Shown: positions 9,562 to 13,436 of the stretch, piece after piece | Position numbering within the stretch: the first letter of the stretch is position 1 | Layout: every line of letters starts with the position of its first letter | From: Gemmatimonadota bacterium | GTDB lineage: Bacteria > Gemmatimonadota > Gemmatimonadetes > Palauibacterales > KS3-K002 | Direction of reading: 5' to 3' | Assembly (NCBI GenBank): GCA_020344215.1 | Contig: CP070815.1 | Location: forward strand, 602,894 to 666,893 | Length of the DNA: 64,000 nucleotides | Made by a program: the position numbers and the translations under genes | Notes under the pieces: generated by a model | Told to the model about the DNA's origin: nothing | The model's database searches: none | The model's input: the letters and a program-made list of their open reading frames with translations, nothing else

Positions 9562-10218
9562 TCAGGCTCTCTTGCCCAGCTTCACCACCGTAACCGGATC
9601 GCTTATCCGCTCGGCCACTGCCGTGTCAGCTGCCGCCGCGATCACACTCAGGCCGGCACGCTCGACCTCCTCGAGATCCCCGACGCTCGCATCGATCAGC
9701 ACCAAGCGGCCGCCCGTTCCCACCAGTCGGGCAGCAGCCGCGACCAGCTCCCGATCACCGCCCGGCGCGATCGCCACGCCTCGCAGCTGATACCCGCCCA
9801 GGGGGAAGCGAACCTCGGAAAGCACGCGACTGATGCCGTGCTGCTCGGCGGAGTCGTCCGCGGCCTCGCGAACGACGATCACCTCCAACTCAGGTGCCAA
9901 CTCCAATACGTCGGGCGCCACGTGAGCCAGCCGCTCGTCGAGCAAGAGGTAGCCCTTCTCCTCCGCCATCCCGCTGAGCGCCACGATCCTCAGCGCCAAC
10001 TCCTCCCCTTCGACCGGAGGACGCGCGACAGGAGGAGCGTCTCGGTCGAGCCTGAGGTTGGCCACGCCGCCCTCCACAGGGTAATCTTGGCGGCAATTCG
10101 GACAGCCCAGCCAACCGCGGTGCACCCGGCGGCCCTCAAGCTCCTGCACGAGCAGCACGAGACCGCTGGCTGGGCCGCAGCGCGGGCAGGTGAGTAGGTC
10201 GGTCAGTTCAAAGAACAC
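9562..10218 (-). CDS. Trm112-like zinc-ribbon domain protein, hypothetical
   Basis: N-terminal LTCPRCG...GWLGCPNCRQDYPVEGGVANL matches the Trm112p-like C-x2-C...C-x2-C fold. Overlaps the upstream amidohydrolase stop (10208-10218). Confidence 0.5.
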   Translation of the reverse strand: MFFELTDLLTCPRCGPASGLVLLVQELEGRRVHRGWLGCPNCRQDYPVEGGVANLRLDRDAPPVARPPVEGEELALRIVALSGMAEEKGYLLLDERLAHVAPDVLELAPELEVIVVREAADDSAEQHGISRVLSEVRFPLGGYQLRGVAIAPGGDRELVAAAARLVGTGGRLVLIDASVGDLEEVERAGLSVIAAAADTAVAERISDPVTVVKLGKRA

Positions 10219-11446
10219 GTTCCAGCTCGGCCAGCGCCCAGCGGTGCATTATGTCACCAGCCAGCTTGATGTCCTCCCCGCGCGAGTCCTCGTCCGGGCG
10301 GTGGCTGACCCCCTTGATGCTGGGGATAAAGAAGAGCCCGGCCGGCGCGACTTGAGCGACGCTCATGACGTCGTGGGCCGCCATCGAGACCATGCGCATC
10401 GACTCCACCCCGGCTTTGTGGCAGATCTCCTCGAAGCGCGAGGTGACTGCTTCCGACATCGGCGTCGGCGGTGCGCTTGCGATCGGCAGCATCTCGAGGC
10501 CGACGCCCGGCGCTCGTGGGCCCGTAGTCGCCACCAGCTCCTTGAGTCGCCGGGCGATCTCGTCTTGGTCGCGATCCGTCGGGGCCCTGTGCTCGACAAT
10601 CGCCCATGCCTGATTGGGGATGACGTTGGCGACGCCTGGCTCGACACCCATCGCCCCGCAGGTGATCACCCCATTCGTCACACCGCGGACCAGCTGAGGT
10701 AGGCGGCCAACCATCCCGGCGATCGGAACCAGGGCATCGCGCCGCTCACGCATCGGCGTCGTGCCGGCGTGATTCGTTTCGCCCATGCTCTCCAAGCGCC
10801 AGCGCCTAATCCCGGACACGTGCGTAACAAGCCCGACCCTCTTGCCGGCGTCGATGAGCTGCCTCCCCTGTTCGATGTGTGCTTCGGCGTAGACCGCGAC
10901 CTCGATCGGCGGCTTGTAGGCGAACTTCGTCACCAGTTCACCCGTCTCCCGGCTCCGCCTGGGCTTCTTCTGCAACCCAAGTTCGGCCAGCAGCTCGGCC
11001 AGGAGTGTTCCCTCCCAGTCACGCAGCAGGAGCTCCTGCTCACTCACCTTGCCGGCGAACGCCCGCGAACCCCAGAGCCCGTTCCCGAAACGGTAGCCCT
11101 CCTCATCGGCCCATATCGCCACCGCGACTGGGGCGTTGCGATGCTTCCGCAGAACCTTCTGCATCGCGGCCAGCGCGGCCGCCACACCGAGCGCGCCGTC
11201 CAGCCAGCCGCCGTTGGGAACGGTATCGAGGTGCGACCCCATCACCACGTACGGTCCGGGCCCGTCTCCGTTGACCAGGAACGTGTTGCCGGCCTGGTCG
11301 CGGATATTCTTCACGCGACGCGAGCGCGAGAACACCGCGGCAGCGGCGGCATGCGCCTTGTCCTCCCATTCGCTCAGCCCGAGCCGCGTGATCCCTTCTT
11401 TAGTCGCGCTGATCGTCTTGAACTTCTTCAGATGCTGATGAATCAT
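10208..11446 (-). CDS. M20-family amidohydrolase (allantoate amidohydrolase / N-carbamoyl-amino-acid hydrolase type)
   Basis: 412 aa with the hydantoinase/carbamoylase-family profile (HLDTVPNGG, HAGTTPM..R.D, AAHDVMSVAQVAPAGLFFIPS..GVSHRPDE). Confidence 0.7.
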   Translation of the reverse strand: MIHQHLKKFKTISATKEGITRLGLSEWEDKAHAAAAAVFSRSRRVKNIRDQAGNTFLVNGDGPGPYVVMGSHLDTVPNGGWLDGALGVAAALAAMQKVLRKHRNAPVAVAIWADEEGYRFGNGLWGSRAFAGKVSEQELLLRDWEGTLLAELLAELGLQKKPRRSRETGELVTKFAYKPPIEVAVYAEAHIEQGRQLIDAGKRVGLVTHVSGIRRWRLESMGETNHAGTTPMRERRDALVPIAGMVGRLPQLVRGVTNGVITCGAMGVEPGVANVIPNQAWAIVEHRAPTDRDQDEIARRLKELVATTGPRAPGVGLEMLPIASAPPTPMSEAVTSRFEEICHKAGVESMRMVSMAAHDVMSVAQVAPAGLFFIPSIKGVSHRPDEDSRGEDIKLAGDIMHRWALAELERVL

Positions 11447-11503
11447 GATCCGTTCACCTGGTCGCAGGAGGCCACTCTCACACCCTCTCCCTATCGGTAT
11501 CCC

Positions 11504-12262
11504 TCAGCCGGCGTTCGCCTGTCGCTCGCCACGACCCGCCGGGTTCGCCCTGAGCACGATCTCCTCTACCGCGACGCTTTCTGGTTGTGCTACAGCGAAA
11601 AACACCGCCTCGGCGACCGCACCCGGGTCGAGCATCTCTGCCCGTGATGGGAGATCGGCTCGCCGATCGGGATCGAATCGATCCCATAGCGGCGTGTCCA
11701 CCGCCGCCGGCTCGATCCACGTCACCCTCAGTCCGCTGCCGTGCAGCTCTTCGACCAGTACTTCATGCAGCCCGCGCAAGCCAAACTTGGAAGCCGAGTA
11801 GGCCGCGTTGCCCGGGAACGCCCTTCGACCTGCTACTGATCCCACATTCACGATGTGTCCGGATCCGCGGGCGAGCATGTCGGGCAAGCAGGCGCGGATG
11901 AGCTCGAACGGCGCCCGCAGATTGACTGCAAGGGCCCGTTCGAAAGCCTCGCTCGCCGTCTCGCTGAACAGCGCAAGCTCGAAGAACCCAGCGTTGTTGA
12001 TCAGGACATCGGGCACGGCGCCCCAAGACTGCTTCACGCGTTCCAGAAGCCGAGCCGCGAACGACCGCTCGCCGAGATCGGCAATGATCGAACGCGCGCC
12101 GAGTCGCGCAGCCAGTTCTTCAAGCGGCCCTGCCCTGCGGCCTAATACCACCAGATCAGCACCGCCGTGCGCCAATCGCTCCGCCACCGCTTGGCCGACA
12201 CCGCCCGTCGCGCCGGTCAGTACGACCCTTACACCCGACAGCTCGCCTCCCGTACTCGTCAC
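11504..12262 (-). CDS. Short-chain dehydrogenase/reductase (SDR); candidate pteridine/sepiapterin-type reductase
   Basis: TGATGGVG Rossmann motif and YSASK catalytic motif. Start overlaps the folE stop by 4 nt. Confidence 0.75.
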
Positions 12263-12885
12263 GATCGGAAGGAGTGAGATGCCACGAGCCGCAAGAACTC
12301 GTCCCGCGTCCGTTGATCGCTTCGGAAGACGCCCTGCACGGAACTCGTGATCGTTCGCGAGTTCTGCTTCTCGACGCCGCGCATCATCATGCAGAGATGG
12401 GCTGCCTCGATTACTACCCCAACGCCCTTCGGCTGCACCGCGTCCTGGATCGCCCGCGCAATTTGGTCCGTGAGGCGCTCCTGAACCTGCAGCCGCCGTG
12501 CGAAAACCTCCACGATCCGTGGCAGCTTGCTGAACCCGATTATTCTACCGTCGGGGATATAGGCGATGTGGGCCTTGCCATAGAACGGCAGGAGGTGATG
12601 CTCGCACATTGAATACAGCTCAATATCTTTGGCAATCACCATCTCGTCGTGCTCGGCCTTAAAGACCCCGTCCCCGATGACCTCGTCAACGCTCATCTCG
12701 TAGCCGCGCGTTAGCCACAGCAACGACTGCTCGACCCTCAGCGGCGTGTTGCTGAGCCCCTCTCGCGCCGGATCCTCACCGAGTATCCGAAGCTGTGCCC
12801 TGATCAGATCCTGCAGCGCTTGCTCGCCGGCCGGGAACCTGACCGTGCCCCCTCGTCCCACTGTCGACTCTCTATTGCCTGGCAT
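12259..12885 (-). CDS. folE: GTP cyclohydrolase I (FolE, zinc-dependent type)
   Basis: [10 protein letters not shown] zinc/active-site motif and a conserved GCH-I core ([20 protein letters not shown]...[34 protein letters not shown]). Confidence 0.9.
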
Positions 12886-13022
12886 TAGCTCTATCCTTCG
12901 CTAGTCTCTCCTCATCGTCCTCGTCATCCTGATCCCCAGCGGCGTCGTCCACGCCAGAAGTCGTTGACGATGAGGATGATGATGGCGGTAAGGACCGAGA
13001 CGGGGCCCCAGACATCGGCGCA

Positions 13023-13436
13023 TCACTCGCCTCGGTACTCCACCAGGTTGCGCTCCGACTCGGAGACGACCACTCGTTCCAACATCCCTTCCGGAAGCAC
13101 CTTCTCGAGTCGACGCCAGACCTGCACCGCGATGTTCTCCGCCGTCGGGATCACACCTTCCATCCACGGCACATCCACATTGAGGTTCGTGTGATCTACA
13201 TCGTTGAGCACAATCTCCTCGACCGTCTCCTTCAGACGCTTCAGATCGAAGACATAACCCGTCTTCGGGTCCACTTCACCTCTGAGCGTGACCTCGAGAC
13301 CGTAGTTGTGGCCGTGGCCGCTCGGGTTGTTGCACAACCCGAAGAGTTCCCGGTTCTCCTGGTCGGATAGCTCGGGGTTGTGCAGGCGGTGGCCGGCGCT
13401 GAAGTGGAGCCGCCGTGTCACACGGACGATGGGCAT
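13023..13436 (-). CDS. queD: 6-pyruvoyl-tetrahydropterin synthase / 6-carboxytetrahydropterin synthase (PTPS/QueD family, Cys-containing type)
   Basis: FSAGHRLHNPELSD...GLCNNPSGHGHNY contains the C-x4-HGH motif of PTPS-I/QueD. 137 aa. Confidence 0.8.
   Translation of the reverse strand: MPIVRVTRRLHFSAGHRLHNPELSDQENRELFGLCNNPSGHGHNYGLEVTLRGEVDPKTGYVFDLKRLKETVEEIVLNDVDHTNLNVDVPWMEGVIPTAENIAVQVWRRLEKVLPEGMLERVVVSESERNLVEYRGE

Follow-up and report, generated by a model that had tools for sequence, protein, structure and literature searches.

A PTPS-II, FolE and reductase gene array in Gemmatimonadota is consistent with a tetrahydrobiopterin-type pathway

Biopterin-type pterins are well understood in animals; records of them in bacteria come from only a handful of groups, cyanobacteria and Chlorobi among them. 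Five consecutive open reading frames (ORFs) on the minus strand of a 64-kb stretch of contig CP070815.1 (hereafter the window), which comes from a Gemmatimonadota metagenome-assembled genome (MAG), raise the question of whether a pathway of this kind is encoded there. Within positions 9562-13436, a 6-pyruvoyl-tetrahydropterin synthase (PTPS) family gene is followed by folE, a short-chain dehydrogenase/reductase (SDR) gene, an M20-family amidohydrolase gene and a gene for a zinc-ribbon protein. An earlier note on this DNA had proposed that these genes serve a tetrahydrobiopterin (BH4)-type pathway rather than queuosine synthesis, coupled to the amidohydrolase and to a protein described as Trm112-like. 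The layout that it described proved accurate: all five ORFs are present in this order, folE and the SDR gene overlap by 4 nt, a gap of 57 nt separates the SDR and M20 genes, and the zinc-ribbon ORF overlaps the stop codon of the M20 gene, the overlap being 11 nt. MAG proteins at NCBI match the zinc-ribbon and M20 proteins with 100% identity, and the genome loci closest to the window are all from Gemmatimonadota. The best-supported reading of the operon, which we hold with moderate confidence from sequence comparisons, is a BH4-type pathway and not a queuosine pathway.

The first gene of the array (13023-13436, minus strand) encodes a 137 amino acid protein that matched the PTPS family PF01242 with 117 bits. 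Members of COG0720 can be told apart by signatures around the active site, namely CxxxxxHGH for PTPS-II, CxxxHGH for QueD (PTPS-I) and ExxHGH for PTPS-III (de Crecy-Lagard and colleagues, PMC5041015). The window protein contains C35-NNPSG-H41-G-H43 (CNNPSGHGH), a CxxxxxHGH signature; the QueD motif CxxxHGH is missing from it, as is the PTPS-III motif ExxHGH, where it reads PSGHGH instead. It aligned end to end with human PTS (3i2b, E=4e-45) and the rat enzyme (1b66, E=1.2e-44), whereas the QueD structures 4ntm and 4ntk were matched only at ~8e-10, and its score against the QueD equivalog model TIGR03367 was 66 bits, below the cutoff of 89.25. The zinc-binding His16, His41 and His43, the catalytic Cys35, the pair Asp81-His82 and Glu126 all aligned with their human and rat equivalents; for the three zinc ligands, the Asp-His pair and the glutamate, we take these to be His23/48/50, Asp88-His89 and Glu133 in rat numbering. 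By these sequence features, the protein is a genuine PTPS-II of the animal type, and not QueD. The earlier note had also remarked that queC, queE and queF are missing around the PTPS gene, and had argued from this against a pure preQ0 role. No QueC, QueE or QueF emerged when virtually every plausible ORF of the entire 64-kb window was scanned with Pfam, nor did any que gene come to notice in the syntenic loci, for which only the window proteins served as queries. The argument therefore holds for the whole window and is joined by the CxxxxxHGH motif, the match to human and rat PTPS and the sub-cutoff QueD score.

The second gene (12259-12885, minus strand) encodes a 208 amino acid FolE, a GTP cyclohydrolase I of the zinc-dependent type IA. 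It scored 246.6 bits against TIGR00063 (equivalog cutoff 181.6) and 262 bits against NF006825 (cutoff 174). Its zinc ligands Cys94, His97 and Cys165 are intact, and it carries the motifs CEHH and HLCMMMRG.

The third gene (11504-12262, minus strand) encodes a classical NADPH-type SDR of 252 amino acids (adh_short, 159 bits) and is the candidate for the pterin side-chain reductase. The protein has a TGATGGVG motif, the residues Ser142, Tyr155 and Lys159, and an Arg42/Arg43 pair typical of enzymes that use NADPH. Compared with the sepiapterin reductase of Chlorobium tepidum (cSR; 2BD0), whose sequence was recovered for this purpose from an alignment with an Ignavibacteriota SDR, it showed 32% identity and 116 bits. 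cSR ranked eighth in a search with the single SDR sequence (97.8 bits vs 108.4 for the top match) and second of 279 with a family profile built from 14 Gemmatimonadota orthologs (142 bits vs 149 for clavulanate dehydrogenase). Trp193, invariant in those 14 SDRs, is the equivalent of cSR Trp196, and a C-terminal EEIxLR motif is common to both proteins. Phe94, likewise invariant, is located two residues ahead of the position of cSR Phe99, which, together with Trp196, we take to form the aromatic pair that sandwiches the pterin. For the SDR at the same position in an Ignavibacteriota locus (L023), cSR was the clear top match (119 vs 103 bits). FabG-like SDRs also lie beside PTPS-FolE in Emticicia and Chitinophaga; these belong to a different SDR family and have no bearing on the window SDR. 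Taken on its sequence, the window protein is plausible as a sepiapterin reductase of the cSR subgroup.

We next consider how widely the array is kept. A genome scan with the PTPS yielded 80 loci, which we compared by tblastn of the window proteins. The order ZIP-PTPS-FolE-SDR-M20-zinc-ribbon-TPR-ACSL, running from an upstream transporter gene to genes for a tetratricopeptide repeat (TPR) protein and a long-chain acyl-CoA ligase (ACSL), was found in 17 close Gemmatimonadota loci with 51-90% protein identity. Because the same order recurs in these 17 related loci, it is not due to chance. PTPS-FolE was present in most of the 80 loci, which fall in Gemmatimonadota, Bacteroidota and Ignavibacteriota, three phyla of the Fibrobacterota-Chlorobi-Bacteroidota (FCB) superphylum, and an SDR gene often comes next after this pair in Bacteroidota and Ignavibacteriota. 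Distant Gemmatimonadota loci (L018, L020, L024, L025 and L027) kept PTPS-FolE, and most of them also the SDR and zinc-ribbon genes, with M20 missing; PTPS-FolE-SDR is seen in L025 and L027, MAG loci assigned to Gemmatimonas and Gemmatimonadaceae. In L082, a 128 amino acid paralog with CExxHGH, a hybrid of the PTPS-I and PTPS-III signatures, stands in M20's place. A deep lineage of the 'bacterium HR33' type has the order FolE-M20-X, without PTPS or SDR at the locus, in which X is a diverged homolog of the zinc-ribbon protein (hmmsearch E=4e-36 to 6e-27). Identities of this lineage to the window are 60-65% for FolE and 51-54% for ACSL, about as distant as those of other Gemmatimonadota.

Metagenomes gave a second view of the array. 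A scan with a pattern for the RNA motif described below returned 80 further loci, 19 of them informative in that they extend at least 3.5 kb downstream. Among these 19, the SDR and zinc-ribbon genes were each found in 18, FolE in 16, PTPS-II in 10 and M20 in a single locus. Elsewhere, the slot between the SDR and zinc-ribbon genes holds a secreted M23/BNR-repeat protein (in several loci), a PTPS-I/III paralog, or nothing. The stable core across Gemmatimonadota is FolE-SDR-zinc-ribbon, with PTPS-II frequent and M20 a rare occupant of a variable slot.

What, then, is the M20 protein doing in the array? The gene (10208-11446, minus strand) encodes a 412 amino acid member of the hydantoinase/carbamoylase family (TIGR01879, 248 bits, cutoff 204) that passed no equivalog model, whether AllC, ErtE or others (NF006771, 299.6 vs 399; TIGR03176, 155 vs 598). 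Its best match in the PDB was the Geobacillus L-carbamoylase 3n5f (E=5.8e-51), with which the metal ligands His72, Asp83, Glu115/116, His190 and His358 aligned, as did His226, Arg235/236, Asn274 and Arg287, residues that hold a ureido-carboxylate substrate. The protein resembles N-carbamoyl-L-amino-acid hydrolases and allantoate amidohydrolases (3N5F, 1Z2L) over its full length, including the metal ligands and the substrate-binding His, Arg and Asn; it differs from them in scoring below all equivalog cutoffs, in forming an orthogroup of its own and in its unusual place in a FolE operon. The orthogroup is sharply bounded, with identities of at least 69% inside it, 43% to the next group (the HR33-type clade) and less than 40% beyond. 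From its sequence, M20 is probably catalytically active, with an N-carbamoyl or N-acyl compound resembling an amino acid as its likely substrate.

The earlier note had suggested that M20 further tailors a pterin. The comparison of loci gave this no support: the gene is part of the array in only two Gemmatimonadota lineages and in one of the 19 informative metagenome loci, and unrelated genes occupy its slot elsewhere. We found no link between the chemistry of M20 and a known pterin step and set the idea aside as unsupported. The coupling of M20 to the array mostly reflects lineage-specific gene-order history, with a functional link between M20 and the zinc-ribbon gene possible given that the two are retained side by side in two deep lineages.

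Of these two accessory proteins, the one with the zinc ribbon accompanies the array more consistently and is also the more puzzling. The terminal gene (9562-10218, minus strand) encodes 218 amino acids, and the description 'Trm112-like' fits the first 55 residues but not the protein as a whole, which has two domains. The Trm112p Pfam family matched residues 4-51 only (20 bits vs a cutoff of 22), the NCBIfam Trm112 model scored 35.7 against a cutoff of 77, and the resemblance is confined to residues 4-56 of 218. Four cysteines (11, 14, 39 and 42) of the Trm112/YbaR type are invariant in the family, along with a few Arg, Gly and Ala residues. Trm112 and YbaR share this N-terminal four-Cys zinc ribbon with the window protein, but Trm112 is a single domain of ~60 amino acids, whereas the window protein carries an additional domain of ~150 amino acids. 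An AlphaFold2 model built with 38 homologs had a mean confidence (pLDDT) of 91.9, and its top Foldseek matches were all S-adenosylmethionine (SAM) methyltransferases, including the zinc-ribbon-bearing RlmA(I) (E from 8e-6, ~1e-5; TM 0.4-0.5). The model shares with RlmA(I) (PDB 1P91) a zinc ribbon and the overall shape of a class I methyltransferase; unlike SAM methyltransferases of this kind, the ~150 amino acid, Rossmann-type domain is without the GxGxG and acidic SAM-binding motifs. No methyltransferase Pfam matched any of the 38 family members, and neither the Gly-rich motif I (GxGxG) nor the acidic motif II is conserved: the position of motif I reads LLLDERLAH in the window and is variable in the family. 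On this sequence evidence, the second domain is probably not an active methyltransferase but a degenerate relative.

The zinc-ribbon protein belongs to a large uncharacterized family. A word-indexed search returned 85 homologs and an exhaustive profile search 1297 representative clusters, nearly all of 200-250 amino acids, and every member traced to an organism was from Gemmatimonadota or the HR33-type lineage. The start codon of the zinc-ribbon gene adjoins or overlaps the preceding gene, be that M20 (in the window), the SDR gene (L020) or the PTPS paralog (L082). We also considered an equally long antisense ORF on the plus strand (9514-10197) as the real gene; the homology and structure model of the minus-strand ORF ruled it out.

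What the sequences show directly is which genes are present, their active-site residues, their synteny and the structure of the RNA; the step chemistry, the product and the accessory-gene roles that follow are inferred. FolE would convert GTP to 7,8-dihydroneopterin triphosphate, the animal-type PTPS-II would convert this to 6-pyruvoyl-tetrahydropterin, and the NADPH-dependent SDR of the cSR subgroup would reduce the side-chain carbonyls to yield a tetrahydrobiopterin stereoisomer. FolE would also feed folate synthesis, by way of a separate PTPS paralog and FolK encoded elsewhere in the window. M20 would be an intact hydrolase of the ureido/N-acyl-amino-acid type that entered the variable slot in two lineages and probably does not act on pterins. 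The zinc-ribbon and pseudo-methyltransferase protein, translationally coupled to the gene before it, may be a conserved accessory or regulatory partner, and the 6S-like RNA upstream of the PTPS gene would be a neighbor of the operon with its own promoter and terminator, not its leader.

Two known pathways are close to this scheme. The L-threo-tetrahydrobiopterin pathway of Chlorobium (Chlorobaculum) tepidum uses the same three enzyme classes (GTP cyclohydrolase I, PTPS and cSR) in the same FCB superphylum, and the Ser-Tyr-Lys triad, Trp196 (Trp193 here) and EEIxLR of its cSR are also found in the window SDR; the window array differs in that it additionally has the M20 and zinc-ribbon genes. 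With the mammalian de novo BH4 pathway (GCH1, PTS and SPR), the window shares a PTPS identical to PTS in its catalytic and zinc-binding residues and a FolE homologous to GCH1. However, its reductase belongs to a type other than mammalian SPR, its genes are in an operon, and a regulator of the GTP cyclohydrolase feedback regulatory protein (GFRP) type is not recognizable.

Several observations weigh against a BH4-type pathway with M20 as a bystander. About half of the Gemmatimonadota loci have FolE-SDR-zinc-ribbon without PTPS-II (PTPS in 10/19), and because this core persists without PTPS-II, the SDR is not strictly dependent on a neighboring PTPS-II and might use another pterin. cSR is not the unique closest relative of the SDR, as clavulanate dehydrogenase scored higher in the profile search and generic SDRs did so in the single-sequence search, and the equivalent of Phe99 is displaced by two residues. 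The M20 proteins of the window clade and the HR33-type lineage are each other's closest relatives, and both are encoded directly before the zinc-ribbon gene; retention of M20 in this position over a long time can indicate functional coupling. Of the pathway as originally proposed, then, PTPS-II, FolE and the PTPS-FolE synteny stand, and the sepiapterin reductase step is tentative, cSR having ranked eighth in one search with the SDR and second in the other.

The alternative that fares best places FolE and the SDR in the folate or general pterin branch, with the SDR acting as a dihydropterin/dihydrofolate-type reductase (FolM- or PTR1-like) and PTPS-II as an optional add-on. It would account for the metagenome counts (SDR 18, FolE 16 and PTPS 10 of 19), for the CExxHGH paralog that L082 encodes within the same operon, and for an SDR that is not uniquely cSR-like. 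FolM enzymes have a TGxxxRxG motif and PTR1 enzymes an Asp-Tyr-Lys triad, but the window SDR has the classical TGxxxGxG and Ser-Tyr-Lys, and it has Trp193 and the C-terminal motif in common with cSR. Genomes whose locus has no PTPS-II may, moreover, encode one elsewhere. On balance, we consider this alternative unlikely.

The window also contains a candidate for the folate branch itself. A second PTPS-family paralog of 126 amino acids (34206-34586, minus strand; PF01242, 87 bits) lies 21 kb from the array and directly downstream of folK (HPPK; 34593-35141, minus strand; TIGR01498, 140 bits), a position that is usual for a folate-branch paralog. Since a separate PTPS paralog adjoins folK, folate synthesis has no obvious need for the PTPS of the array. 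In the motif of the paralog, SGRTHGH, the Cys and the Glu that mark the published PTPS-I, -II and -III signatures are both missing, and its GRTHGH departs from the ExxHGH of PTPS-III. Set against the COG0720 subfamilies (PMC5041015), the array PTPS fits PTPS-II, whereas this paralog agrees with no signature of the three and may be an inactive copy or a further subtype that bypasses FolB.

A second alternative assigns all five genes to one pathway, in which M20 and the zinc-ribbon protein act in the tailoring or recycling of a pterin or of a formamido- or ureido-pyrimidine derived from GTP, or regulate FolE. The deep HR33-type lineage, with FolE-M20-zinc-ribbon and neither PTPS nor SDR, speaks for it (identities of 41-43% for M20, 28-30% for the zinc-ribbon protein and 60-65% for FolE), as do the start of the zinc-ribbon ORF across the M20 stop codon and the position of the zinc-ribbon protein at the end of the array in 18/19 loci. 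Set against this, M20 is missing from most lineages, and the same slot takes unrelated genes such as that for the M23/BNR secreted protein; the M20 active site keeps the carboxylate-binding Arg, Asn and His of carbamoyl-amino-acid hydrolases; and the methyltransferase-like domain is without SAM-binding motifs. We know of no pterin step that needs such a hydrolase. A single pathway for all five genes therefore appears rather improbable. A further proposal is that pterin synthesis has a dedicated partner or regulator in the zinc-ribbon protein, which might bind FolE or a substrate, for instance, and which in two lineages acts with the co-translated M20 on an unrecognized ureido or formamido compound derived from GTP or a pterin; we regard this as speculative and give it little weight.

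Finally, that the array PTPS is a QueD drawing its substrate from FolE for preQ0/queuosine synthesis is very improbable: the genes for QueD and FolE lie close together in many bacteria (PMC5041015) and TIGR03367 gave a weak match, but the protein has CxxxxxHGH in place of CxxxHGH, resembles mammalian PTPS far more strongly than the QueD structures, and has no queC/E/F near it within 64 kb.

Upstream of the array, the 412-nt spacer between the ZIP and PTPS genes contains a further conserved element. It comprises a promoter, ~170 nt with a higher conservation than the flanking genes, and a terminator, all on the minus strand. The promoter is a strong match to the sigma-70 type (TTGACG, a 17-nt spacer and TAGTAT; 13795-13823), the structured small RNA spans 13620-13790, and the intrinsic terminator (13593-13621), a 13-bp stem with nine G-C pairs and a T6 tail, lies 156 nt ahead of the start codon of PTPS. 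The promoter block TTTGTTCAATTGAC is invariant in 14 loci, and distant homologs of the RNA likewise have TTGAC..TAnATT boxes in front of it. The 14 loci also keep the terminator, both arms of whose stem have changed, and equivalent hairpins follow the RNA in the distant homologs. An alignment of 13 loci showed a mean column identity of 83% over the RNA. The consensus fold from this alignment has 50 pairs. In a 23-sequence alignment, which was fitted to a covariance model built from that fold and hence leans toward it, 28 of the 50 pairs show compensatory changes, and 94% of cells were paired, whereas sliding the partners left no more than 49% paired. The fold is predicted to be branched, and its closing stem is supported by covariation. 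The covariance model found the RNA upstream of PTPS in L018, L020, L025, L027 and L082 and upstream of FolE in HR33-type loci. In 62 of the 72 metagenome loci with a readable downstream region, the next pterin gene after the RNA was PTPS (43) or FolE (19).

Several lines of evidence point to 6S RNA. The Rfam 6S family (RF00013) matched 4 of 16 short loci, each time exactly on the RNA and on the correct strand, at 19-23 bits vs a gathering score of 46.4. In L116 alone, the 6S E-value was 0.041 over the full model, with UGAGCCGA, CAUGCC..GGGAAG and GGCUUCA aligned to the 6S consensus; these blocks are universally conserved in the homologs of the small RNA. RF00013 gave no match in the window copy, even at E<=10, and the covariance model built from the small RNA did not find E. 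coli ssrS. Like 6S RNA, the element is ~170-190 nt long, has its own sigma-70-type promoter and a terminator, and pairs its 5' and 3' ends, and its blocks UGAGCC, CAYGCC..GGGAAG and GGCUUCA align to consensus positions; it differs in scoring below the gathering threshold and in a fold with extra side hairpins rather than a simple rod. In proteobacteria such as E. coli and Coxiella, ssrS is linked to ygfA/fau, which encodes 5-formyl-tetrahydrofolate cyclo-ligase, and the Gemmatimonadota RNA likewise adjoins a folate/pterin gene. We conclude from these sequence comparisons that the small RNA is probably a divergent 6S RNA (SsrS), missed by Rfam thresholds in this phylum. Literature searches for Gemmatimonadetes with riboswitch or 6S RNA returned nothing relevant.

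A riboswitch or leader of PTPS was an alternative for a conserved 170-nt element with a terminator and a possible antiterminator (UCGGAGG with the left terminator arm). We rejected it: every homolog has its own promoter and terminator, a convergent gene for a ~400 amino acid membrane protein lies between the RNA and FolE in ~17/80 metagenome loci, cytochrome-b-like genes follow the RNA in one locus, and sub-threshold 6S matches recur. Searches at E<=10 gave no Rfam match to a known folate or pterin riboswitch (tetrahydrofolate classes THF-I and THF-II, molybdenum cofactor (Moco), ZTP or preQ1). With its own promoter and terminator and the intervening convergent gene in ~17 loci, the small RNA is an independent gene and not the leader of the operon. 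The convergent gene stands between the RNA and FolE/PTPS in L095, L101, L107, L118, L159 and ~12 other metagenome loci, all from one Gemmatimonadota group; motifs resembling those of cation/Ca2+ exchangers were recognized in the protein by eye only. Between the RNA terminator and the PTPS start (13437-13592, minus strand), the blocks AACTGGCA, then, after 18 nt, TAAGTT, and then GCGATTT are conserved in 14 loci. These blocks are possibly the weak promoter of the operon itself.

The surroundings of the array are as follows. Immediately upstream is a gene for a ZIP-family zinc transporter (13849-14730, minus strand; PF02535, 87 bits), which is conserved upstream of the array in L001-L018, L097 and L147 and is in a separate transcription unit despite the shared synteny. 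Divergent from it on the plus strand, a porin-like outer-membrane protein, ZnuA and ZnuB form a tandem duplication (15199-18744 and 19148-22369), and the second ZnuB copy appears to be split by a frameshift near 22300-22370, with 215 amino acids in one frame and the C-terminal part in another. The proximity of ZIP and porin-ZnuA-ZnuB to three zinc enzymes (FolE, PTPS and M20) made a zinc regulon a candidate; we dismissed it on finding that HR33-type and other lineages keep the array without the transporters, a comparison that did not include a search for a Zur box. Downstream of the array and co-directional with it are genes for a small membrane protein, the TPR protein, ACSL and CutA, followed by further genes. 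The membrane protein (9210-9458, minus strand; 82 amino acids), which lies between the zinc-ribbon and TPR genes, has a weak NCBIfam 'bacteriophage holin' match (51.6 vs 70 bits) and is probably not of phage origin, as it is syntenic in about ten close relatives. Farther away, a small plus-strand cluster (28764-32721) contains two adjacent D-Ala-D-Ala-ligase-like ATP-grasp genes, a GNAT acetyltransferase gene and a lysine-2,3-aminomutase-like radical SAM gene.

The type of cluster described here is already known from the PTPS-II, GTP cyclohydrolase I and sepiapterin reductase sets of Chlorobi, cyanobacteria and animals, and none of our findings overturns current knowledge. About 50 genomes have been estimated to encode PTPS-II together with sepiapterin reductase (PMC5041015). 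Our comparisons suggest that a PTPS-II/FolE/SDR cluster is widespread in Gemmatimonadota; judging by the sampled loci, this phylum is common in soil and sediment metagenomes. Two further points emerge: FolE is accompanied by a protein family that is large and uncharacterized, and a probable 6S RNA scores below current Rfam thresholds. For the biology of this phylum, the array provides a concrete set of genes with which the roles of reduced pterins in Gemmatimonadota can be tested.

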